This document shows, one piece after another, positions 8,973 through 20,788 of a DNA stretch of 55,955 bases. The number at the start of each line of letters is the position of its first letter. Position 1 is the first letter of the stretch. The translations under genes and the position numbers were made by a program. Source of the stretch: Bdellovibrionales bacterium (GTDB lineage: Bacteria > Bdellovibrionota > UBA1018 > CAIMNF01); assembly GCA_040380025.1 (NCBI GenBank), contig JBEIJY010000014.1:1-55955 (forward strand), read 5' to 3'. The notes under the pieces were generated by a model. It made no database searches. It was not told where the DNA came from and saw only the letters and a list, made by a program, of their open reading frames with translations.

Positions 8973-10760
8973 ATGCAAAAGTTCCTCATCCTCACGCTCC
9001 TTGTGCTCTCTTCATGCTCGTCGTCTCCTCCGGTAACGGCGAAACAAACCGAGAAAACTGAAGCCTTTCGCGGCATCATGGACCGGTATTTCGAGACTTT
9101 TTTGCAGTTGAATCCGCTCTACGCTTCCTCGATCGGCGACAAACGCTATGATGCCGAACTCGCCACGGGCGTGTCAGACGAATACCGCGCCCGGAGCAGG
9201 GCCGCGATGGAGAGCGCCTTGGTAGAGATTCGCGCGCTCGGATGCGGGGACCTCCCCGATGCGGACCGCTTCAGCTGCCTCACCTTCGAAACGGACCTCG
9301 ATGCGGGAATCGCGCTTTTGAATGCGGATCTCGATTACCTGATGTCCTTCAATCAGTTTGCGAGCTTTTTCTTGGATTTCGCCGAAATCGCCTCGGGATC
9401 GAGCTATGTGACGTTTGATACGGCAAGCGATTACCGGAACTTCCTCTCGAGGATGAAAAAAGTGCCTGGCGTGCTTCGTGCGGCCGAAGAAAAAATGCGC
9501 GAGGGAATGAAGAAATCGATCACTGTACCCCGCGCCCTTGCGGTGAAGGGAGTCCGGCAGTTGAAGAAAATCCTTTCTGCCAAGATCGAAGAGAGCGTTT
9601 TTTACAAACCGCTTTTGAAGTTCCCGGCAAGTATGTCGAAGGCCGAACAGGATGCGATCCGTCCTGAATACGAGACCGCCATTCGCGATGAGGTCTATCC
9701 GGCGTACCGGAATCTCTTGAAGTTCGTCGAAACCACATACTTGCCCCGTTGCCGGAAAACCTCTGGCGTTTCGGCCCTTCGTGGCGGACGCGACTATTAT
9801 CGTGCCCTCGCCCGCTACCACACGACCACTGCTCTGGATCCCGACGCGATTCATGAGATCGGCCTGAAAGAAGTGGCACGCATTCGCGCGGAACTGGAAG
9901 CCGTAAAAAAAGAGCTCGGATTCCGCGGCTCGCTTCCTCAGTTTTTTACCGCGCTCCGGAGCAATCCGGCGCTGTATCCGTTCCGGTCGGCCGACGAAGT
10001 GATGAATGCCTACCGCGACATCCACAAAAAAATGCTTCCCGGCATTGAAGGGTTATTTCGTCTGACACCGAAAGCGGGATTCGAGATCCGCGAGGTCGAG
10101 AAATTCAAGGCCGACACGGCGGGCGAGGCGTATCAAAACCCGAGCGAGGACGGGTCGCGTCCCGGGATCTTCTGGGTGCCGGTGCCGGACCCGAAAAAAT
10201 ACTCGAAAAAGTCGATGGAAACGCTGTTTTTGCACGAGGCGATTCCGGGGCATCATTTTCAGATCGCACTCCAGCAGGAACTCGATCTGCCCAGATACCG
10301 GCGCTTCAACGGCAACAACGCCTATGTCGAGGGGTGGGGCCTTTATGCCGAGAGCCTCGGGCGCGAGCTCGGGCTGTATCAGGACCCCTACTCGCGCATC
10401 GGAAACCTCGAATACGCGATGCACCGGGCGCTCCGCTTGGTGGTCGACACGGGGATTCACTGGAAGGGCTGGAGCCGCGAGCGGGCCATTGCCTACTGCC
10501 TGCAGAATGAGCCCATGGGAAAGGACGACATCGTGGCCGAGATCGAGCGCTACATGGCGATCCCGGGTCAGGCCCTCTCGTACAAGCTCGGGGAACTCAA
10601 AATCCAAGAGCTTCGCGCTCTTGCCCGCTCAAGGTTGAAGAACCACTACCGCGATCCGGCGTTCCATGACGAGATCCTGCGCGATGGCCCCCTGCCCCTG
10701 TCGGTGCTGGAGACCAAGATCCGTGCGTGGATCGGCCGCGAAATCAGCAAGCGCGAATAA
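8973..10760 (+). CDS. DUF885-family lipoprotein (predicted metallopeptidase)
   Basis: Lipobox LSSC; HEAIPGHHFQ; AYVEGWGLYAE; PGQALSYKLG. Confidence 0.88.
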   Translation: MQKFLILTLLVLSSCSSSPPVTAKQTEKTEAFRGIMDRYFETFLQLNPLYASSIGDKRYDAELATGVSDEYRARSRAAMESALVEIRALGCGDLPDADRFSCLTFETDLDAGIALLNADLDYLMSFNQFASFFLDFAEIASGSSYVTFDTASDYRNFLSRMKKVPGVLRAAEEKMREGMKKSITVPRALAVKGVRQLKKILSAKIEESVFYKPLLKFPASMSKAEQDAIRPEYETAIRDEVYPAYRNLLKFVETTYLPRCRKTSGVSALRGGRDYYRALARYHTTTALDPDAIHEIGLKEVARIRAELEAVKKELGFRGSLPQFFTALRSNPALYPFRSADEVMNAYRDIHKKMLPGIEGLFRLTPKAGFEIREVEKFKADTAGEAYQNPSEDGSRPGIFWVPVPDPKKYSKKSMETLFLHEAIPGHHFQIALQQELDLPRYRRFNGNNAYVEGWGLYAESLGRELGLYQDPYSRIGNLEYAMHRALRLVVDTGIHWKGWSRERAIAYCLQNEPMGKDDIVAEIERYMAIPGQALSYKLGELKIQELRALARSRLKNHYRDPAFHDEILRDGPLPLSVLETKIRAWIGREISKRE

Positions 10761-10930
10761 AAAGTGAACCAACCTACAGATGAGGGGTGTCTCGATTTGG
10801 AACCTGAAAGACACCCCTCAGCTGTAGTTTCCACAACCCCCGGATGCAGGGCTTTTGACCCCAAATCCGGGTCAGGCAGAAGGGCACCAATTCAAGGTTC
10901 GTTTGACCTTCTTTCGGCCTGACCAGCATC
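10757..10930 (-). ncRNA. Candidate sigma54-dependent structured small RNA (alternatively a leaderless 51-aa ORF, 10929..10774)
   Basis: Immediately downstream of a consensus -24/-12 promoter. Three successive hairpins: 10870-10883/10907-10924, 10840-10845/10865-10870 and 10774-10792/10809-10827. Confidence 0.5.
10774..10827. terminator. Long hairpin between convergent DUF885 and ftsH; probable bidirectional terminator
   Basis: CTACAGaTGAGGGGTGTCT-N16-AGACACCCCTCAgCTGTAG, 18 of 19 bp paired. Confidence 0.6.
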
Positions 10931-10939
10931 AAAATTGAA

Positions 10940-10955
10940 AGCAAGGGCGGTGCCA
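10940..10955 (-). promoter_or_regulatory. sigma54 (-24/-12) promoter
   Basis: Minus strand TGGCAC-CGCCC-TTGCT, an exact match to TGGCAC-N5-TTGCW. Confidence 0.75.
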
Positions 10956-10958
10956 CGC

Positions 10959-12839
10959 TCAAGATGAAAAAGAGGCAGGCCCCGATGCAGTCATGGCACC
11001 GGAAGTCCCGGCCAGGGACAGTTTCGTCCCGCCCCGGTGCCTCTGCCAGAGATCCCGGAGCTCGGCTTCGTCGAGCACTTCTTTTTCAAGAAGCAGACGC
11101 ACGCACTCATCCAAGAATTCACTGTGGGTCCGGATGATCTTGCATGCGGTCGTGTAGGAATGCTCCAGAATGCGCGCGATCTCATGATCGATCAGGCGTG
11201 CGGTTTCGTCGCTGTAATCGTAGTTCCGCACCTTGAGCTCGGGCGATAAAAACGGACTCGTGGGTTTACCGTAACTCATGAGGCCGAGATCGGCCCCCAT
11301 GCCGTATCGCGTGACCATGGCGTGTGCGATCTCGGTTGCGCGATCAAGGTCGTCTGCGGCTCCGGTCGAGACCTCCTTGAAGAAAATCGACTCGGACGCA
11401 CGGCCTCCGAGAAGAACCGAGAGCTTGTTCTCGAGCTCCCTCCGGTCGATGAGATACCGGTCCTCGGTCGGGCGTCGGAGCGTGTATCCGAGTGCTCCTG
11501 CCCCCCGTGGAATGATGCTCACCTTGTGAACCGTCTCTCCCTCTTCGACCGCAAGCGAGACCACGGCGTGTCCCATTTCGTGATAGGCGACTCTTCGTTT
11601 TTCTTCGGGCCTCAAAATCCGGCTCTTTCGTTCCAAGCCGCCCACAATTCGCTCAATTCCCGCCGTGAAATCCCGCATCTCCACCCGCTCCGCGCCCCTG
11701 CGGGTCGCGATCAGGGTGGCCTCGTTCACGAGGTTCTCGAGGTCCGCACCCGAAAAACCCGCTGTGAGGCCCGAAAGCGCGTCGATATCGACCGCGGGAT
11801 CGTGTTTTGCTTTTTTGAGATGAATGCGAAGGATCGCCGAGCGTCCGCCCCGATCGGGCATGTCGATCACCACCTGCCGGTCAAAGCGCCCTGAACGAAG
11901 GAGCGCCGGATCGAGAATCTCGGGCCGATTCGTCGCCGCAAGAAGCACGACCCCTTTGGAGGGATCGAACCCGTCGAGTTCGGCAAGAAGCTGGTTCAAA
12001 GTCTGCTCTTTTTCGTCGTTCGCGCCCCCGCTCACGAGACTGAACCCCCGGGCTTTGCCGAGCGCATCCATCTCGTCGATGAAGATGATGCAGGGAGCAT
12101 GACTCCTCGCCTGCTCGAACAAATCGCGGACCCGGGCGGCTCCGAGGCCCACGAACATCTCGACGAATTCGGAGCCGTTGATCAAAAAAAACGGCACATT
12201 CGCCTCGCCCGCCACGGCGCGGGCAAGCAGGGTCTTCCCCGTTCCCGGCGGTCCGACCAGCAAAATTCCCTTCGGCATCCGCCCGCCGAGTCGCTGAAAA
12301 TGTTCCGGGGATTTCAAAAACTGTACTACTTCTTGGAGTTCCTGCTTTGCCTCATCGACCCCTGCGACATCGGCAAACCGGACTTTCAGATCGCGCTCGA
12401 CGAAAACCCGGGCACGGGAACGCCCGAGTGTTCCGAGCTGAGCCTGTCCGCGACCCATACGGCCCAGAAGGAACCACCAGAACAACCCGAGGGTGAGCAC
12501 CGGCACGACCCATGATAGAAAGTCGCGGAAAAACGAGCTTTCATGAATCGACTCGAAACGGACGCGGGAGTCGATCAGACGCGGAACGAGCCCTGGATCG
12601 TCCATCTTTGCGGTCGCAAAGCGCGCGGATTCCGTAAGGGGAGGTCTGAGGAACTCACCCTCGATCCGCTCCCCCGCCACCCGCACCGAGAGCACCTCGT
12701 GACGATCCAAAAGCTCGACAAACCGGCTGTAGGGAATCTGCTCGATTCGTGCAACAGGCCGCATCCCCTCCCGCACGAGCATGAGAAGCCAGATCGCGAG
12801 GATCACGAGAAAGATCGTCCCTCCCCGCAGCTTCTTCAT
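10959..12839 (-). CDS. ftsH: ATP-dependent zinc metalloprotease FtsH
   Basis: Two N-terminal TMs; [46 protein letters not shown] overlap with the usp stop. Confidence 0.95.
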
Positions 12840-13813: not shown

Positions 13814-16238
13814 GTTCCTCCCGCCTTTTTCTTTCCGCCCGTTCCACGATCGGGAGGATCTTCAACACCGAATCAGGGTTGAGAGAAATGCTGTGGATTC
13901 CCTCCCCGATCAAAAACTCCGTGAATTCCGGATCATCACTCGGCGCCTCGCCGCAAATCCCGACCGGCTTGCCGAGGGCGCGAGCGGTCCGGATCACGGA
14001 TCGGATCATTTCCTTGACCGAGGCATCCCGCTCCTGGAAGAGCGGGGCCAGGCGTTCGGAATCCCGATCCACCCCGAGCACAAGTTGGGTCAGATCATTC
14101 GATCCGATCGAGAAGCCGTCAAACAGCTCCAGGAACTCACGGGCAAGAATGACGTTCGAAGGGATTTCGCACATCATCCAGATCTCGAGGCCGCCTTCAC
14201 CACGCCGAAGCCCTGATTTTCCGAGCTCAGCGAGAGAGTTTTTCGCGTCTTCGATGGTGCGGCAAAAAGGAATCATCACCTTCACGTTCACGAGGCCCAT
14301 TTCAAACCGAACCTTGCGAACGGCCCCACACTCCAGGCGGAAGCCGTCGCGGTACGCGTCGTTCCAATAGCGAAACGAGCCGCGGAACCCGAGCATGGGA
14401 TTTTCTTCCTCCTGCTCGAATGCGGAGCCCCCCGCAAGAGCGGCGTATTCGTTCGATTTGAAATCACTCATGCGAAGAATCACGGGCTTCGGATAGAATG
14501 CGGCGGCGATCACTCCGATTTGTTCGGATAGCTTTTGAACGAAGTAGACTTCGGGTGTTTCACCGGGCGGGATCTTCTTTTGGATTCTTTCTTTCTCGGC
14601 GGGATCCGTGACCAGATCCGGATGGGCGATCGCCATCGGATGGATTCCGATGCCGGAACTGATCATGAACTCCATTCGGGCAAGGCCGACTCCCGAATTC
14701 GGAAGAAACGAGTTCCGGATGGCATCGTCGGGCCTTCCGAGGTTGAGCATGATCTGAGTTCGCAGTTCTCCCGAAGAAAAGGCCGGAATTTCCTCGGTCC
14801 GGAACCGGGTCGTTCCACGATACACAAACCCGACATCGCCTTCGGCGCTCGATACGGTGATCGCCTCGCCGTTTCGGATCGAAGTGGTGCCGTTTCCCGT
14901 TCCCACAATCGCAGGAATGCCCAATTCCCGAGCCAGAATAGCGGCGTGACAGGTCCGTCCCCCGCGATTGGTCACCACTGCCGAAGCCCGCCGGAGAACA
15001 GGTTCCCAATCGGGGTCGGTCTTCGAGGTCACGAGAATCTCGGAATCCTTGAGCTGGTGAAGATCCTTCACCGAGTAGATCACGCGTGCGGTTCCGGTCC
15101 GGATCTCATTGCCGACACTTTTTCCGCGGGCGAGCACCGGCCCCGCCTCCTCGATGAAATACTGGAGAGTGCGGGTCCCGGCACCGGGAATCTTCCGGCT
15201 CTGGACCGTCTCCGGTCTCGCCTGAACGATGAACAGCTCCCCGCTCGGTCCGTCCTTCGCCCATTCAATGTCCATCGGGGTGGGGTTTTCTCGTTGCATC
15301 GAAAAATGATGCTCGATCATGGTCCCGGCCCGCGCGAGCTCGATCACCTCGGCATCGGTCAGAGAAAGCCTGATTTTTCTTTCGAGCGGGACCTCGACCT
15401 CGATCGTTTTTGACTTCTGCGATTGGTCATACACGAGGGAGCGTTCCTTCGAGCCGACCTCGCGTTTCAGGATCGGAGAAAATCCGTCTTCGAGAAGCGG
15501 CTTATAGACCCAGAACTCATCCGGATTCACTGATCCCTTTACGATCGATTCGCCGAGGCCATAAGAAGAGTTGATCACGACGAGGTCGCGAAATCCGGTT
15601 TCGGGTTCGAGCGTGAACAGTACTCCCGAGGAAGCAAGATCGGAGCGGATCATCTCCTGCACACCCACCGAGAGAAACACCTTGGTATGACTGATGTTCC
15701 GTTCGGAGCGATACATGATGGCGCGATCCGAGTAGAGGGAAGCGAAACAACTTCGAATGCTGTGAAGCAAATCCCGCTCCCCTTCCACATTCAAAAATGT
15801 GTCTTGTTGTCCGGCAAAACTCGCCTCGGGAAGATCCTCGGCCGTGGCACTGCTCCGGACCGCAACATCGAGCCGTCCCCGGCGGACATCGACAAGTTCA
15901 TGATACGCTCCAAGGACCGCATCTCGCGTATCGTCCCCGAATCGTCCCGACAGGACCGCCGCACGGATTCGCTCCCCGATCGAGGATATCCTGACCGGAT
16001 CCTCGATTCGGGCCTGATCCGAGAGCAGATCTTGGACAAGACCAGAGATCCGATTGCTCTTCATGAATTCCTGAAATGCCCCGACCGTAAGCGCAAATCC
16101 CCGGGGAACACGCACCCCTTCTTTACGGACGGAGTGAAATAGCTCACCGAGTGAGGCATTTTTACCCCCGACAAGGTCCAGGTCTTCGAGCCGGAGAGTG
16201 TCAAACCATCGGATTTTCGAGGAAACCGGATCTTTCAC
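13803..16238 (-). CDS. ppsA: Phosphoenolpyruvate synthase (pyruvate, water dikinase)
   Basis: VGGKNASLGE, AVRSSATAED, phospho-His motif GGRTCHAAI, FSIGSNDLTQL. Probable GTG start at 16238. Confidence 0.95.
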   Translation of the reverse strand: MKDPVSSKIRWFDTLRLEDLDLVGGKNASLGELFHSVRKEGVRVPRGFALTVGAFQEFMKSNRISGLVQDLLSDQARIEDPVRISSIGERIRAAVLSGRFGDDTRDAVLGAYHELVDVRRGRLDVAVRSSATAEDLPEASFAGQQDTFLNVEGERDLLHSIRSCFASLYSDRAIMYRSERNISHTKVFLSVGVQEMIRSDLASSGVLFTLEPETGFRDLVVINSSYGLGESIVKGSVNPDEFWVYKPLLEDGFSPILKREVGSKERSLVYDQSQKSKTIEVEVPLERKIRLSLTDAEVIELARAGTMIEHHFSMQRENPTPMDIEWAKDGPSGELFIVQARPETVQSRKIPGAGTRTLQYFIEEAGPVLARGKSVGNEIRTGTARVIYSVKDLHQLKDSEILVTSKTDPDWEPVLRRASAVVTNRGGRTCHAAILARELGIPAIVGTGNGTTSIRNGEAITVSSAEGDVGFVYRGTTRFRTEEIPAFSSGELRTQIMLNLGRPDDAIRNSFLPNSGVGLARMEFMISSGIGIHPMAIAHPDLVTDPAEKERIQKKIPPGETPEVYFVQKLSEQIGVIAAAFYPKPVILRMSDFKSNEYAALAGGSAFEQEEENPMLGFRGSFRYWNDAYRDGFRLECGAVRKVRFEMGLVNVKVMIPFCRTIEDAKNSLAELGKSGLRRGEGGLEIWMMCEIPSNVILAREFLELFDGFSIGSNDLTQLVLGVDRDSERLAPLFQERDASVKEMIRSVIRTARALGKPVGICGEAPSDDPEFTEFLIGEGIHSISLNPDSVLKILPIVERAERKRREEHGY

Positions 16239-16250
16239 GATGGAAGTGGT

Positions 16251-16266
16251 AGCAAGGGGCGGGCCA
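16251..16266 (-). promoter_or_regulatory. sigma54 (-24/-12) promoter of ppsA-usp-ftsH
   Basis: Minus strand TGGCCC-GCCCC-TTGCT; the GTG start lies 14 nt after the -12 C. Confidence 0.65.
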
Positions 16267-16339: not shown

Positions 16340-17476
16340 GTGAGAGTGTTGCTTTTGATTCTGTTTGTCTATTCCTCCTCTCCATCCCGGGCAGACCCGA
16401 AGCTGACCATGAGCGGAATTTCGAGTACCCTGAACTCCCTCCTTGCCCTGTCCCTGCGCGATGAGACCTGGAGGGCTGACAAAAACCGGAGCGAGATCCG
16501 TCGAGGGTTGGAAGGCCTGCTTCAGCTTTCGCATGAGATCCCGAACGGAAAGAATGAGTCGAATGATCCGAGTCTTGTGATCCTCGCCCCGGTCCTTTCG
16601 GACCAGATCCGCCTTGCCCTTTCGGCCCATCAGCTGGGCCAATTCGAGGTTTCACGGCAAATGGTTCGCTCCCTCACGGCCAGTTGCTTCGGATGCCATT
16701 CCCGCGAACCCGAATGGAGCACGCAAGATCAGAAATCCTTGCCCGGATTCGTCTCTTCCCTTTCGGCACTCGATCAAGCCCGATACGCAGTCTCGCTTCA
16801 TCAAACCAAGACCGCTCTGAGCGGATATGAGCGATTTCTGCTGGAGCCCGGCTCGATCAAGCGTGATTTGCAGTCCTGGCATGATGCGCTTCGGGAGTCA
16901 CTGACTCTGATTCTCCGCGTGAACCGGGACCCGCAATCAGCCATAGAGCTGATCGGAAGGATCAAAAAGATTGAGGGAATTCCGTTCTTCTTAAAAAGGG
17001 AGCTTGCTGCCTGGGAGAGGGACCTTCTTTCTTGGAGGAGAGACCGATCCATCCCGAAGGGAGAGGCTCTCTTGCGTCTCGAGATTCAAAAACGATATGC
17101 GGAGGCCTCGGCGCGGCGGACCCATCCGCTTGATCACTCCGCCGATATGGCATTCCTTCGGCTTACTTCACTTTTGTATGAAATGATGCGGCGATATCCG
17201 AAAAGCCGCTTTCTTGCAGAGGCTGAATACCTCCAAGGTGTTTCTTACGAGACCCTCTCGACTCCTCCCTTCGAAAACCTCCATGAATTATTTTACGAGT
17301 CATGCATCCGTCGTGAACCCCACAGCAGAACGGCCGAAAAGTGTTACGAGCGGCTCGAGCGGAGCGTCTACTTCGGGTTCACGGGGAGCTCCGGAACGCA
17401 CATTCCCATCGAGCTTGAGAACAAGCTTCTCGAGCTTTGGGGGCGGGCATTTGTGCCCGGGAAACTTGACCATTGA
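16340..17476 (+). CDS. Exported monoheme c-type cytochrome with a helical/TPR-like C-terminal region
   Basis: Signal peptide; single CxxCH (SCFGCHS) at the end of a helical N-terminal domain; YPKSRFLAEAEY resembles a TPR. Confidence 0.6.
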   Translation: MRVLLLILFVYSSSPSRADPKLTMSGISSTLNSLLALSLRDETWRADKNRSEIRRGLEGLLQLSHEIPNGKNESNDPSLVILAPVLSDQIRLALSAHQLGQFEVSRQMVRSLTASCFGCHSREPEWSTQDQKSLPGFVSSLSALDQARYAVSLHQTKTALSGYERFLLEPGSIKRDLQSWHDALRESLTLILRVNRDPQSAIELIGRIKKIEGIPFFLKRELAAWERDLLSWRRDRSIPKGEALLRLEIQKRYAEASARRTHPLDHSADMAFLRLTSLLYEMMRRYPKSRFLAEAEYLQGVSYETLSTPPFENLHELFYESCIRREPHSRTAEKCYERLERSVYFGFTGSSGTHIPIELENKLLELWGRAFVPGKLDH

Positions 17477-17492
17477 TGAGATCGCCGATCAC

Positions 17493-18635
17493 TCAGGGTG
17501 CTTTCGGGAACTTGAGATGGAACTTCGCGCCTTTTCCGAACTGGCTCTCTACCGAAATGGTGCCGCCCCAGGACTGCACGATTCGTTGACTGAGAGCAAG
17601 TCCGAGCCCGAGACCGCCTCCGATCGGGCGGGCGGAGAAAAACGGGCGAAACAAACGGATCTGATCTTCTGCGCGGATTCCACATCCGGAATCAGAAACA
17701 GTCATCACCCGGCTTTCGTCGGCATCAGCAAGAGACACCCGCACCGAATGGGGACCGGCATTTCCCCCTCTCCGCGCTTCTTCGATCGCCTCGATCGAAT
17801 TCTGAAACAAACTGTGCAAAACCTGATGCAAAGGTTCGCTTCCGGCCCGCGCCTCGAGAATCACACCGTCCGGGATGGAATTCGAGATCGCAATCTCGTG
17901 AAAGCGAAACGAAGTCGCCATGACCTCGATGATCTCGTTCACCACCAATTTCAGGTCAACCCGTCCCGAGCGCTTGGAGTCATCCCCCCGCGCGAGGTTC
18001 AAAAGTGAACGCATGAGATTCGAGATCCGGTCGACCTGCGAGATGATGATTTCGAGATCCCTCTTCAACCCGGGTTGGTCGCGGTTCTTCATGAGCATCA
18101 CCTCCGACCGACCCCGGATCACACCGAGCGGTGTGCCAATTTCGTGCGCCATGCCCGAGGCGAGAACCCCGACCGATGCCAACCGCTCCTGAATGAGCAT
18201 GCGTGCATCCCGCTCCTTCAGATCGGCCTGCAGGCGCATGCGTCCCATTGCATACCGGACCGCGCGCTCAAGAAGTGCCGGGGTCACCTCGTCCCGCACC
18301 AAAAAATCCCCCGCTCCGAGGGCAACTCCATCGGAATCCAATCCGTCTTTTCCCGGATCTCCGATCACGACAACCGGCGGTGCGGAGGTAAGATCCCTCA
18401 GGCGAACCAGAAAATCCCGCGCCTGTTCGACTCCCACAGAATCACTGAGCAGAATCACTCCCGGAAACCCCGTGGAGGCGAGTTCGAGGATGTGGCCGGC
18501 CGAGGAGCTCCACTCGAGCACAAACTCCTGACCCGGCAAGGATTCGATCATGTCAGAAAAACCTTGATACTCATCAAGGTCGACACTGTGGAGCAAGAGG
18601 CGCTTCGATTCATGATGACGCAGAAAGGGACTCAT
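17493..18635 (-). CDS. Cytoplasmic histidine kinase with N-terminal degenerate receiver domain
   Basis: H-box SGMAHEIGTPL, N-box LFQNSIEA, G1 DSGCGI, G2 GLGLGL; receiver-like GAGDFL; no TM segment. Confidence 0.85.
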   Translation of the reverse strand: MSPFLRHHESKRLLLHSVDLDEYQGFSDMIESLPGQEFVLEWSSSAGHILELASTGFPGVILLSDSVGVEQARDFLVRLRDLTSAPPVVVIGDPGKDGLDSDGVALGAGDFLVRDEVTPALLERAVRYAMGRMRLQADLKERDARMLIQERLASVGVLASGMAHEIGTPLGVIRGRSEVMLMKNRDQPGLKRDLEIIISQVDRISNLMRSLLNLARGDDSKRSGRVDLKLVVNEIIEVMATSFRFHEIAISNSIPDGVILEARAGSEPLHQVLHSLFQNSIEAIEEARRGGNAGPHSVRVSLADADESRVMTVSDSGCGIRAEDQIRLFRPFFSARPIGGGLGLGLALSQRIVQSWGGTISVESQFGKGAKFHLKFPKAP

Positions 18636-18796
18636 CCGGCATCGGGTGTATCACACCGGAATCGATTCAAAAAAGCCTTGTTTTCCATCAATTCTTCAAA
18701 CATTCTTTACTGAAAATCCCTGCATTTTCGCTATCCCATTCGAGAATCCTTGGTGTATGAAAATTCACGAAACATGTGAATGGGGTGAAACACATC

Positions 18797-20251
18797 ATGA
18801 GCGACACAAAAGGGAACATCATCATCATCGACGACGACCGCGAAATGCGGGTGCTGGTTTCGGATTTCTTCCGGGGGCTCGGATTCCGAACGCACATCTT
18901 CGGGCTTGCCAAAGAGGCGCTCGATGCCGTCTCGCCGGGCGGGGCCCTGGCCGAGTCCGGTTCTGAGGGAGACATTGACGTCGTGATCTCGGACATCCGG
19001 ATGCCCGAGATGGACGGAATCCAGCTGACGGAACTCCTGCGCGAGAAACGACCCGAGATCCCGGTGGTGCTGATCACCGCTTTCGGAAGCGTGGAAACCG
19101 CAATCGAAGCAATGCACAAGGGCGCCTACCATTATGTTGTGAAGCCCTTCAAGCTGACCGAGCTCGAGGCAACGGTGATCAAGGCCCTAGAGTTCCGGGC
19201 TCTTCAAAAGGACAATACGGCCCTTCGCGCTGAGGTCCGGAAAGGCTGGAACTTCGGGAACGTGATTGGCAAAAGCGACAGCATGAAGCGCATTTATGAT
19301 CTCGTGTCGCGGATCGCCGGTGCGAATTCGAACGTGCTGATCACCGGCGAAAGCGGTACCGGAAAGGAAATGATCGCGAAGGCGATCCATGAGAGCGGAC
19401 CGCGGGCGAACAAACCGTTCGTGGCGATCAACTGTACGGCAATTCCCGAGAACCTGCTCGAGTCTGAACTGTTCGGACACGCGAAGGGCTCGTTCACGGG
19501 TGCGATTCAACGAAAGCGCGGGCTTTTCGAGGAGGCAAACGGCGGTACGATCTTTCTGGACGAGATCGGGGACATGAATGTGCTCTTGCAATCGAAACTG
19601 CTCCGGGTGATTCAGGAGCGGAAAATCCGCGCTGTGGGGGAAAACATTCCGATCGATGTGAACGTGCGGGTGATTGCGGCCACGCACAAGGATCTCCGGA
19701 CTGCCATGAAAGAGGGGCGCTTCCGCGATGACCTGTATTATCGTCTGAGTGTGATTCCGATCCAGATTCCCCCGCTCCGGCATCGGAAGGAGGACATTCC
19801 TCTTCTTGCCGAGCATTTTCTCAAAAAATATTCTGCCTTGAACCAGATGAAGGTAAAGGGCTTCACCAAGCGGGCCATTGCGAAGCTGATCGGAATGAAG
19901 TGGGAAGGAAACGTGCGCGAGCTCGAGAATGTGGTCGAGCGCGCAATCGTTCTTTGTTCGCAAACGCTCGTGGATGAGAATGACATTCCCACTCCCGAAG
20001 CCCAGACACCGGATGAGTTTTTCGGCGAGTCGACCTCGGATTATCCGACACTCACCACGCTCGAAGAGCGATACATTCGCCTGATTCTCGAGAAGACCGG
20101 CGGACGCAAGGACAAGGCATCGCAGATTCTCGGCATCAACCGCAGGACCTTGTATCGAAAAGAGCGGGAATACGGCATGGTTCCGCTTTCCACCCCCGAA
20201 CCTGATGAATTGGGCGAAGAGGACCTGAGCGAGAACATGATGGATGTTTGA
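18797..20251 (+). CDS. sigma54-dependent response regulator (NtrC/AtoC-type enhancer-binding protein)
   Basis: REC (IIDDD, SDIRMP); GESGTGKE, ESELFGH, GSFTGA loop, FLDEIG; Fis-type HTH ASQILGINRRTLYRK. Confidence 0.95.
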   Translation: MSDTKGNIIIIDDDREMRVLVSDFFRGLGFRTHIFGLAKEALDAVSPGGALAESGSEGDIDVVISDIRMPEMDGIQLTELLREKRPEIPVVLITAFGSVETAIEAMHKGAYHYVVKPFKLTELEATVIKALEFRALQKDNTALRAEVRKGWNFGNVIGKSDSMKRIYDLVSRIAGANSNVLITGESGTGKEMIAKAIHESGPRANKPFVAINCTAIPENLLESELFGHAKGSFTGAIQRKRGLFEEANGGTIFLDEIGDMNVLLQSKLLRVIQERKIRAVGENIPIDVNVRVIAATHKDLRTAMKEGRFRDDLYYRLSVIPIQIPPLRHRKEDIPLLAEHFLKKYSALNQMKVKGFTKRAIAKLIGMKWEGNVRELENVVERAIVLCSQTLVDENDIPTPEAQTPDEFFGESTSDYPTLTTLEERYIRLILEKTGGRKDKASQILGINRRTLYRKEREYGMVPLSTPEPDELGEEDLSENMMDV

Positions 20252-20384
20252 GGAGAGAGGAAGCGGATGAATCCCGCCGGCCGGGGAAAGGCTTAAACTT
20301 GCCCGTCCTCCGGCCGGTACCCATCCGGATCAAAAGCTTTGCAAGCGGGGTGCCAAAGGAAACGGTGCGTGCAACAAAACCGAA

Positions 20385-20400
20385 TGGCACCGGCCTTGCT
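20385..20400 (+). promoter_or_regulatory. sigma54 (-24/-12) promoter
   Basis: TGGCAC-CGGCC-TTGCT, exact consensus; ATG 20414 lies 15 nt after the -12 C. Confidence 0.8.
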
Positions 20401-20413
20401 TCGATGAGAGTCG

Positions 20414-20788
20414 ATGAAGTCGAAAAAATACGTGATTTTGGCTCTTTTTTTCGCTCTCGTGATCTCGGGCGGAATCGCCCTCTCCCTGACCGGGGAACCG
20501 CCGCGGGAACCCGTACTCCCGCAGGGGACAATTGTGGAACACAAGGGGCGGAAATATCGCATCGAAACCGACGAGAACCTGCACCGGGTCCGCGTGTTTT
20601 ATGATCTCGATCAAAAACCCTATCCGACCGGGATTGTTCTTTTGCTGAAGCGAAAGGACCAGCCTTCCCGGAGAATCAAGCTCGGGCTCACCGAAACCAC
20701 TCGGGAATCGGTGGTCTACTCGGGCCTTGTGCCTTCGAATGTGTTGATCTCGGGCGGGGTGAGCTTTCAGATCAAAGAGACCAGATGA
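20414..20788 (+). CDS. Small hypothetical exported/membrane-anchored protein (124 aa)
   Basis: Basic N-terminus and hydrophobic stretch, then a beta-rich domain; directly follows the sigma54 promoter. Confidence 0.65.
   Translation: MKSKKYVILALFFALVISGGIALSLTGEPPREPVLPQGTIVEHKGRKYRIETDENLHRVRVFYDLDQKPYPTGIVLLLKRKDQPSRRIKLGLTETTRESVVYSGLVPSNVLISGGVSFQIKETR

Follow-up and report, generated by a model that had tools for sequence, protein, structure and literature searches.

Does the gap between two convergent genes, an ftsH paralogue and a gene for a DUF885 protein, give rise to a regulatory RNA under sigma-54 control? The question is raised by a stretch of 55,955 nt from a Bdellovibrionales assembly (GCA_040380025.1, contig JBEIJY010000014.1), which is referred to here in its full length as the window. 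To our knowledge, little work on regulatory RNAs in Bdellovibrionota goes beyond Bdellovibrio bacteriovorus, and its uncultured freshwater relatives are unexplored in this respect. An earlier note on this DNA had proposed that an orphan sigma-54 promoter drives a structured small RNA in the gap. Our best explanation of the locus is a sigma-54-dependent non-coding RNA of ~155-175 nt with its own promoter at the very end of ftsH, a reading to which we assign a probability of roughly 0.6.

Promoter and gene neighbourhood

The promoter is borne at the 3' end of the ftsH paralogue, and the features that define its surroundings are as follows.

8973..10760, plus strand: convergent gene for a DUF885 protein (Pfam PF05960, E 1.8e-157)
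10959..12839, minus strand: ftsH paralogue, 626 aa from the ATG at 12839 (Pfam Peptidase_M41, AAA, FtsH_ext)
10940..10955, minus strand: sigma-54 promoter TGGCAC-N5-TTGCT, an exact consensus with GG at -24 and GC at -12
10929, minus strand: predicted +1, at the usual sigma-54 spacing, 12 nt downstream of the C in the -12 GC

The exact match claimed in the earlier note is present as TGGCACCGCCCTTGCT at 10955-10940 on the minus strand and begins 3 nt past the ftsH stop (TGA, 10961-10959). Its GG and GC dinucleotides lie exactly 10 nt apart within TGGCAC-N5-TTGCW. The window holds four matches to the promoter motif at one mismatch or fewer versus 1.15 expected, and only 1 of 100 shuffles reached four. 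Elsewhere in the window, two further promoters of sigma-54 type are each separated from a start codon by 3-4 nt, so leaderless translation from such promoters may occur in the organism. Across both strands of the 2.35-Mb genome, eight exact matches were counted, and 20 first-order Markov simulations of the genome gave a mean of 1.4 (range 0-3). No sigma-70-like promoter was found in the gap between ftsH and the DUF885 gene. The protein machinery is encoded: rpoN is located on contig C9 (PF04552, 216.8 bits), and PF00158, the domain of enhancer-binding ATPases, scores above 130 bits at 10 places, including one in the window (about 10 full proteins in the genome).

The start of ftsH overlaps the stop of usp as ATGA, and a second ftsH, 46% identical to the promoter-bearing copy, is found on contig C21. 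The earlier note described the gap as lacking a recognisable gene, and this agrees with Pfam, to which its two open reading frames gave zero matches. Similarly, no known riboswitch, 6S, SRP or tmRNA was recognized: Rfam returned 0 matches at the gathering score over the whole window, and the best matches over 10600-11100, at E 0.27-0.29, scored far under their cut-offs, with none credible even when E up to 10 was allowed. The note had itself named a multicopy REP or MITE as grounds for abandoning its reading. A REP, MITE or other palindromic repeat is ruled out, because only one locus matches in the 2.35-Mb assembly: a 202-nt BLAST query hit its own locus and palindrome, and every other match was a fragment no longer than 23 nt.

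Which activator would serve the promoter was approached through the neighbouring genes. The nearest activator gene lies 7.8 kb from the RNA locus, the activator gene of the window spanning 18776-20251, and the link between the RNA and the nearby kinase/activator pair is a proposal from synteny only. The activator gene is syntenic in two relatives that carry the element (G002 and G013), and activator orthologues of at least 67% identity are also present in seven genus genomes without the RNA. The consensus-type promoters adjacent to the activator in the window were absent around activator orthologues in 10 other genomes under a strict pattern; a looser pattern recovered the antisense activator-adjacent promoter in G013 and G002 only. 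Further, the 260 nt before the promoter, which are ftsH coding sequence, contain no 6-nt inverted repeat shared by the five genomes carrying the element that could serve as an upstream activator site, which would be expected some 80-200 nt ahead of the promoter.

RNA structure and its retention among relatives

The ~170 nt downstream of the promoter fold into three consecutive hairpins, as the earlier note had described, and their parts are listed below.

10872..10922, minus strand: hairpin 1 (5' domain), irregular and long in minimum-free-energy folds, closed by GGUCAGGC/GCCUGACC
10839..10871, minus strand: hairpin 2 (CCGGAUU.UGGGGU...GCCCUG.AUCCGG), from folds in five genomes
10828..10837, minus strand: invariant motif GUUGUGGAAA, linker of hairpins 2 and 3 and candidate seed or recognition site
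10774..10827, minus strand: hairpin 3, terminator-like, from folds and covariation
10759..10763, minus strand: U5 run, starting at the 11th nt past hairpin 3 and overlapping the DUF885 stop codon

The minus strand of 10757-10935 folds at -75.3 kcal/mol versus -55.4 +/- 3.9 kcal/mol for shuffled sequences (z -5.06), and 0/200 shuffles folded as well. In hairpin 3, a single C.U mismatch divides 6 bp of lower stem from 12-13 bp of upper stem, and the palindrome is close enough for both strands to score. The note had placed a U-run shortly after this hairpin; the long near-perfect stem and the U5 are both there, but the U5 begins only at that 11th nucleotide, and a simple consensus terminator scan called no terminator at hairpin 3/U5. 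Hairpin 3 probably also ends the convergent DUF885 transcript. The overlap with that transcript suggested earlier holds for the common hairpin and the stop codon and is limited to those.

Because flanking DNA is too diverged, BLASTN with 551 nt around the element matched 0 of 40 relatives, and relatives were reached via the DUF885 and FtsH proteins. An arrangement of promoter, hairpin 1, hairpin 2, GUUGUGGAAA and hairpin 3 follows the orthologous ftsH in five of the 17 genus genomes (the source genome G000, G002, G013, G010 and G004) and was not found in the other 99 genomes of the order. At the level of sequence, this retention of promoter and structure, whose lack in relatives the note had named as counting against its reading, supports the reading of the element as a sigma-54-dependent structured small RNA. 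The predicted RNAs are 130-187 nt long in the five carriers, and their 120-nt cores have z scores of -4.1 to -6.4, with 0/200 shuffles as good in each. All five have a 5' hairpin domain of differing sequence and a hairpin at the place of hairpin 2 whose inner sequence is unrelated, whereas GTTGTGGAA is identical in 5/5. The seed candidate GUUGUGGAA is invariant in all five and lies between two hairpins, although in some minimum-free-energy folds part of it pairs weakly with the 3' tail over 5 bp.

Paired positions have also changed together. In a four-sequence model alignment, three of the six pairs of hairpin 2 changed on both sides with 100% of cells paired, and for hairpin 3, which would covary even as a mere terminator, the figures are seven of 22 pairs and 94%. 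Over the whole alignment, 95.3% of cells are paired versus 45-51% when the partners are slid. Double changes occur in 10 of 28 pairs versus 3.3 in shuffles (0/500 reach the observed value), counts that come from an alignment fitted to the model; the element as a whole is represented by five sequences, from about three lineages.

The promoter itself is kept in a way that bears on its use. An exact TGGCAC-N5-TTGC[TA] stands at the corresponding position in G013, G010 and G004, which with the source genome makes four of the five carriers, while the N5 spacers vary across the five (CGCCC, CGCCC, CCTCC, CTTCT, TCAGT). Relative to the ftsH stop, the promoter starts at +3 in the source genome, at +74 in G004 and at -23 in G013, G010 and G002, where it occupies the last seven ftsH codons. 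As its position varies, the hexamers are kept whether they are coding or non-coding. G002 has a near match, TGGCAT-N5-TTGGT, in which the near-invariant -12 GC is lost, so its copy may rely on ftsH read-through or be decaying.

These patterns have to be weighed against a simpler view of the locus, in which the hairpins are the 3' UTR of ftsH and the DUF885 gene together with a bidirectional terminator, the sigma-54 site is cryptic, decaying or merely occupied and makes no separate RNA, and any stable small RNA would come solely by processing of ftsH mRNA. The location between convergent genes, the two-strand palindrome of hairpin 3, the retention of the RNA part in G002 despite the loss of the -12 GC, and the lack of an upstream activator site in the 260 nt searched in five genomes all suit this view. 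We nevertheless consider it unlikely. An exact 15-position consensus has been kept in four genomes although spacer and stop-relative position change, termination requires neither hairpins 1 and 2 nor an invariant unpaired 10-mer, and G004 keeps everything in a place that has no convergent gene.

G004 also bears on a second alternative, action in cis. The convergence of ftsH and the DUF885 gene is seen in G002, G013 and G010 as well as in the source genome and is absent in G004, where a ferritin-like gene (PF00210, E 1.2e-24) starts on the same strand ~25 nt past the hairpin. The sigma-54 transcript could act by antisense read-through of a weak hairpin-3 terminator into the DUF885 3' end in four genomes, and in G004 the element would be the regulated leader of the ferritin/Dps-like gene. 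A U-tract adjacent to hairpin 3 is missing in 4/5 genomes, as read-through would have it, the exception being G004, in which the upper stem of hairpin 3 alone is followed directly by UUUU. We regard cis action as very unlikely, since the RNA body is kept while the neighbours differ (DUF885 convergent, Dps co-directional), a canonical hairpin and UUUU precede the Dps-like gene in G004, and antisense action leaves the hairpin-flanked invariant motif unexplained.

Wider searches returned the same five loci. A pattern of promoter, 70-140 nt and GTTGTGGAA matched in nine of 116 order genomes, five of these matches being the carrier loci, and a reversed control pattern gave two matches in the order genomes. 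The other four (G032, G065, G092 and G103) were judged unrelated from their 80-base matched strings alone; three of them start with an exact TGGCAC-N5-TTGC[AT] and have an ATG further on, and that of G032 is a near-match. Covariance models built from three (R1) and four (R2) sequences were run over 19 family and 116 order genomes and found one true copy per carrier genome; extra matches (G004:C309, G009, G016, G085 and G074) were ordinary terminators without the motif. At just 23-30 bits for the true G004 copy, R2 may overlook members that have diverged. The pattern GTTGTGGAARN{2,3}CARCYGAG was too loose (at least 120 matches over unrelated phyla), and four matches to a 24-nt pattern in a metagenome scan, none with the hairpin or promoter, were taken as chance. 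One branch of the FtsH tree separates the five carriers from the other sequences, with support of 99/99 for G000, G010, G002 and G013 and of 70/64 when G004 is added. A single origin of the element is plausible from this tree.

Coding potential, targets and protein partners

The predicted +1 at 10929 coincides with the A of an ATG that opens a 51-aa open reading frame (MLVRPKEGQ...) closing at a UAG inside hairpin 3. The transcript could be translated without a leader into a small protein, 51 aa long here, or be a dual-function RNA, with G-L-W-K-x-Q-L-R as the conserved segment. The exact placement of the ATG speaks for this idea, as do the other window promoters of sigma-54 type just ahead of start codons and the frame through the motif (..LWK..), which is open in 5/5 carriers. 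The ATG at +1, however, is unique to the source genome. The carriers share no start codon: elsewhere starts are TTG or GTG at +18 to +100, and predicted lengths range between 24 aa and over 55 aa. Among the close relatives, G013 differs from G002 and G010 by indels of 2, 1 and 2 nt, and in G004 the loss of 1 nt puts the conserved CA[AG]C[CT]GAG block, after AAA, into a different frame. Third codon positions of the conserved block are invariant, and neither a protein search nor Pfam returned a homologue of the 51-aa peptide. With start, frame and length not conserved, a small-protein gene is disfavoured, and the leaderless alternative put forward in the earlier note, now weakened, is highly improbable. 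Five related uncultured Bdellovibrio-like species retain the element, which, judged by its pattern of change, most likely encodes a non-coding RNA.

For a non-coding RNA with an exposed linker, candidate targets were sought as exact 9-mers complementary to the motif. The genome holds 28 non-self complements, three of them near start codons (C7, C8 and C5). The protein of the C8 candidate had no match in the four other carriers, that of C7 had a weak partial match in G010 only, and C5 has orthologues in G013 and G002 without the site; a conserved target site was found for none of the three. The 9-mer is no commoner than its reversed control in five genomes.

The linker might instead be presented to a protein, for example with its GGA in an alternative hairpin, GUUGUG-GAAA-CNCANC, offered to CsrA or another RNA-binding protein. 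The genome encodes CsrA, a search of it for Hfq found none, and in 5/5 carriers the motif and the first bases of hairpin 3 can form such a 6-bp hairpin, the only changes being A/G opposite U. CsrA decoys carry many loop-exposed GGA sites. The five predicted RNAs have just 2-5 GGA triplets each, about the composition expectation and mostly inside stems, and we see only a very slim chance that protein binding is what the RNA is for.

Proposed action, known systems and significance

The sigma-54-dependent RNA that we favour would work as follows. Sigma-54 RNA polymerase would bind the -24/-12 elements and be activated by an enhancer-binding ATPase, and transcription would start near 10929. In the folded RNA, two hairpins at the 5' end would be followed by the invariant GUUGUGGAAA, left exposed, and by a long 3' hairpin, which would end the transcript and be common to read-through ftsH mRNA and the convergent DUF885 mRNA. 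The promoter sequence, the fold, its conservation and covariation and the lack of a conserved reading frame are observed here; transcription, both transcript ends, the activator and base pairing as the way of acting are inferred. The linker would be the working part, most likely as a seed pairing with target mRNAs without Hfq, and a signal sensed through sigma-54 would thereby join ftsH expression in post-transcriptional control.

Sigma-54-dependent small RNAs and small RNAs with promoters embedded in open reading frames are both already known, and the locus is not a new principle. NrsZ of Pseudomonas aeruginosa was found through the RpoN consensus TGGCAC-N5-TTGCW between tail-to-tail genes, and its transcript is described as promoter-dependent with a stem-loop architecture (PMC4253122). 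The discovery logic is the same here, a sigma-54 consensus between tail-to-tail genes. As described, NrsZ adjoins ntrC, is controlled by NtrB/C and is processed to three repeated stem-loop units (PMC4253122), whereas the present RNA is without internal repeats, comes from a different phylum and has no sequence match to it. Pxr of Myxococcus xanthus and other myxobacteria is likewise reported as intergenic and confined to one lineage, its host being a former deltaproteobacterium (PMC5568312; PMC5684412). Pxr is placed directly after the activator gene nla19, whereas the present RNA follows ftsH and has its nearest activator gene 7.8 kb away; and the conserved part is stem-loops 1 and 2 in the accounts of Pxr, in contrast to an unpaired 10-mer here.

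For the position of the promoter, the closest comparison is with MicL in cutC, DapZ in dapB and MicX, whose promoters are described within the 3' end of an open reading frame (PMC9438474). As at the present locus, the promoter is at or just before a stop codon, and the RNA coincides with its host gene's 3' UTR, with which it presumably has a terminator in common (PMC9438474). The promoter lies within the reading frame in G013, G010 and G002 and just outside it in the source genome and G004. The MicL promoter also uses an alternative sigma factor, sigma-E in that case and sigma-54 in the present one; MicL, DapZ and MicX are presented as Hfq-dependent and enterobacterial, whereas Hfq was not found in the present genome. 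Judged by title and abstract, such an RNA is described in none of the listed papers on Bdellovibrio, small RNAs and sigma-54, a weak basis for calling it unpublished.

Qrr, GlmY and CrcZ are small RNAs that need sigma-54 and a dedicated activator, and they differ from the present RNA in sequence, host and context. We know of none among the three at the 3' end of ftsH.

A bolder extension is that a lineage lacking Hfq built a sigma-54 stress island of kinase and activator, PEP-utilising enzyme, Usp and FtsH, with sigma-54 small RNAs, both newly evolved, at its two ends. We consider it doubtful. If it were true, one of these RNAs would have been born at the ftsH 3' end, with a promoter doubling in some species as the last seven FtsH codons. 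FtsH and the RNA would then be partners in one circuit of protein and RNA, comparable to CpxP/CpxQ or sigma-E/MicL, in which the protease would clear damaged membrane proteins and the RNA, via GUUGUGGAAA, would stop their synthesis.

The finding adds a candidate sigma-54-dependent small RNA in a host whose genome yielded no Hfq. Its promoter type implies signal-dependent, all-or-none control, and the locus offers a defined 10-nt candidate seed. In addition, the origin of the element may be traced within one genus, where the promoter overlaps the ftsH 3' end in some species and lies outside the gene in others, which would make it a natural case for the birth of small RNAs at gene 3' ends.

Promoter and gene setting

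The assembly comprises 2.35 Mb in 53 contigs (98% complete, 58% G+C), and the window is its contig C14. A gap of 198 nt separates DUF885 from ftsH, and the following features are relevant to it.

8973-10760, + strand: DUF885 gene, convergent with the ftsH paralogue (- strand)
10955-10940, - strand: sigma-54 promoter TGGCACCGCCCTTGCT, 3 nt past the ftsH stop
upstream of usp: PEP-utilising enzyme gene
17493-18635, - strand: histidine kinase, 7-8 kb from the element
18776-20251, + strand: sigma-54 activator of the response-regulator type, 7-8 kb from the element

The exact sigma-54 consensus that the earlier note placed just after the ftsH stop is indeed there. Sigma-54 is encoded in the genome together with about 10 full-length activators, and exact TGGCAC-N5-TTGCW occurs in 8 copies genome-wide on both strands, 3 of them within the window, against a chance expectation of 1.4 on average and 3 at maximum (20 first-order Markov simulations). 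No sigma-70-type promoter was found by a consensus scan of the gap. The true start of ftsH is ATG 12839, the listed 722-aa ORF being over-extended, and it overlaps the stop of the upstream universal-stress-protein gene usp in an ATGA (12836-12839), which suggests translational coupling of the two. Contig C21 carries another ftsH copy; the one here is a diverged paralogue sharing 46% identity with it.

Divergence within the genus is deep (DUF885 at most 62% and FtsH at most 75% identical), and BLASTN accordingly matched the element in 0 of 40 relatives. Relatives were reached via proteins instead, and the sequence downstream of each orthologous ftsH was compared. The same element follows the orthologous ftsH in four further genus genomes (G002, G013, G010 and G004) and is missing there in ten other genus genomes recovered. 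DUF885 remains convergent with ftsH in G002, G013 and G010. The predicted RNA of G004 faces no DUF885; about 25 nt past it, on the same strand, lies a gene of the ferritin/Dps type (PF00210, E 1.2e-24; locus L214, 7680-8162, - strand).

The promoter hexamers are exact in the window's own genome (G000), G013, G010 and G004, whereas G002 carries TGGCAT-N5-TTGGT and has lost the -12 GC. The N5 spacers are CGCCC, CGCCC (G002), CCTCC, CTTCT and TCAGT. Relative to the ftsH stop, the promoter begins 3 nt downstream in G000, 74 nt downstream in G004 and 23 nt upstream in G013, G010 and G002, where it encodes the last FtsH residues (..LAPSLLV). Because the exact 15-position consensus is kept in both coding and non-coding settings, the predicted promoter is under its own selection, and neither chance nor mere coding constraint explains it.

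A predicted structured transcript

As proposed from the sequence alone, an RNA starting at the predicted +1 (10929) would form three hairpins; the computed fold reaches -75.3 kcal/mol, which none of 200 shuffles equalled (z -5.06). The last hairpin and its U-run are likewise present, although the U5 run begins only at the 11th nt beyond that hairpin, overlapping the DUF885 stop codon, and a consensus scan called no canonical terminator. The element has no Rfam match, in line with the earlier note, which did not recognise it as a known riboswitch, 6S, SRP or tmRNA, and is single-copy in the 2.35-Mb genome rather than a multicopy REP/MITE.

The order of promoter, 5' hairpin domain, hairpin 2, GUUGUGGAAA and hairpin 3 is the same in all five genomes, with predicted RNA lengths of 130-187 nt and 120-nt cores that each fold better than shuffles (z -4.1 to -6.4). 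The sequence of hairpin 2 is of three unrelated types (G000; G004; the G002/G013/G010 group), yet the hairpin forms 8-14 pairs in every genome. Among model-aligned sequences (n=4), 95.3% of cells are paired versus 45-51% with partners slid. Both sides changed in 10 of 28 pairs versus 3.3 in shuffles, a value reached by 0 of 500 shuffles, for a model-fitted alignment of four sequences from two lineages, in which hairpin 3 would also covary as a plain terminator. These comparisons indicate that the putative RNA body is under structural selection.

Alternatively, the transcript could be a leaderless mRNA for a peptide, the 51-aa protein of the earlier note, which we consider very improbable. An ATG coincides exactly with the predicted +1, the motif-spanning frame is open in all five genomes, and start codons also follow two further sigma-54-type promoters of the window at 3-4 nt (20385, +, before ATG 20414; one-mismatch 16266, -, before GTG 16236). 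However, start codons vary in type and place, giving predicted lengths of 24 to >55 aa; the would-be ORF of G013 has indels of 2, 1 and 2 nt compared with G002 and G010; and a 1-nt deletion in G004 shifts the frame of the conserved CAGCYGAG block, whose wobble positions are invariant. Neither a protein homologue nor a Pfam match was found in the searches. The structured RNA driven by a sigma-54 promoter, the main reading of the earlier note, is the one that the conserved promoter and element order in the five genomes and the covariation among the four aligned sequences support.

Other sigma-54 sites in the window

A second exact orphan promoter, TGGCACCCCGCTTGCA (20355-20340, -), lies 104 nt from the activator stop and points tail-to-tail into the 3' end of that gene. 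In G013 (locus L213) and G002 (L212) it has one-mismatch counterparts (AGGCAC.. and CGGCAC..), 122 and 116 nt from the stop. Each is followed by hairpins, among them one whose loop, CAAGUUUAAG, is conserved while its stems covary; no such antisense promoter was found in 8 further genomes of the genus. The stretch 20240-20355 (-) may be a second sigma-54-dependent small RNA, placed by an activator gene as are Pxr and NrsZ.

Back-to-back with it, 30 bp away, another exact promoter (20385-20400, +) lies about 3 nt before ATG 20414 of a 124-aa ORF, promoter and ORF together spanning 20385-20788, so the mRNA would be nearly leaderless. The N-terminus of the product looks like a signal peptide, and Pfam gives no match. 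Around activator orthologues in 10 other genomes, no consensus promoter was found. The one-mismatch site at 16266 (-), TGGCCC-N5-TTGCT, precedes the PEP-utilising enzyme gene by about 15 nt, counted to its probable GTG start at 16236; the listed 950-aa ORF of this gene is over-extended. The PEP-utilising enzyme/usp/ftsH operon may be under sigma-54 control as well, and its leader would then be very short. G013 has an exact consensus between usp and ftsH (L213 position 4905, -). For the 378-aa ORF (16340-17476, +) that separates the kinase from the PEP-utilising enzyme gene, neither Pfam nor tblastn against the syntenic G002 and G013 regions gave a match.

Possible function, parallels and distribution

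The linker motif GTTGTGGAA is identical in all five genomes, and this invariant unpaired 10-mer is, by analogy with described small RNAs, the likeliest candidate for a seed. For this motif, pairing with the opening bases of hairpin 3 (GUUGUG-GAAA-CNCANC) is an alternative, and in G004 the small hairpin so formed takes the place of the hairpin 3 lower stem. Non-self 9-mer complements number 28 in the genome, 3 of them close to start codons, and across the five genomes the 9-mer is no commoner than its reversed control. No conserved target site was found for these three in the four carriers compared: the C8 candidate target protein has no match, the C7 candidate has a weak partial match in G010 only, and orthologues of the C5 candidate lack the complementary site. 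Hfq (PF17209) had no match in the 98%-complete assembly, while control genomes matched; CsrA is encoded by one gene (contig C36). The nearby activator gene is syntenic with the element at 7-8 kb in G002 and G013, but close orthologues also occur in 7 genus genomes without the RNA, and no shared upstream activator site was seen.

Among the nearest described cases, myxobacterial Pxr has a sigma-54 promoter and three stem-loops (PMC5568312). Like the RpoN consensus of the promoter-dependent Pseudomonas NrsZ (PMC4253122), the consensus of the element lies between convergent genes. Its promoter at a gene 3' end recalls the ORF-embedded promoters of MicL, DapZ and MicX (PMC9438474). This anatomy is probably that of a stand-alone regulatory RNA with its promoter at the 3' end of a gene and a terminator shared with that gene.

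A pattern of promoter, 70-140 nt and motif matched 9 of the order's 116 genomes, five being the carrier loci, and its reversed control matched 2. The other four were judged unrelated from their first 80 bases alone; three of them begin with an exact consensus promoter, with an ATG further along. Covariance models retrieve all five loci, the remaining matches being terminators without the motif, and a 24-nt pattern gave 4 matches in a metagenome collection, all chance. Carriers fall on one side of a branch in the FtsH tree (99/99 for G000 with G010, G002 and G013; 70/64 when G004 is added), and a single origin within the genus is plausible. Taken at the level of sequence comparison, the evidence supports an uncatalogued, lineage-restricted structured RNA with a predicted sigma-54 promoter at the ftsH 3' end, of a kind that is already known.
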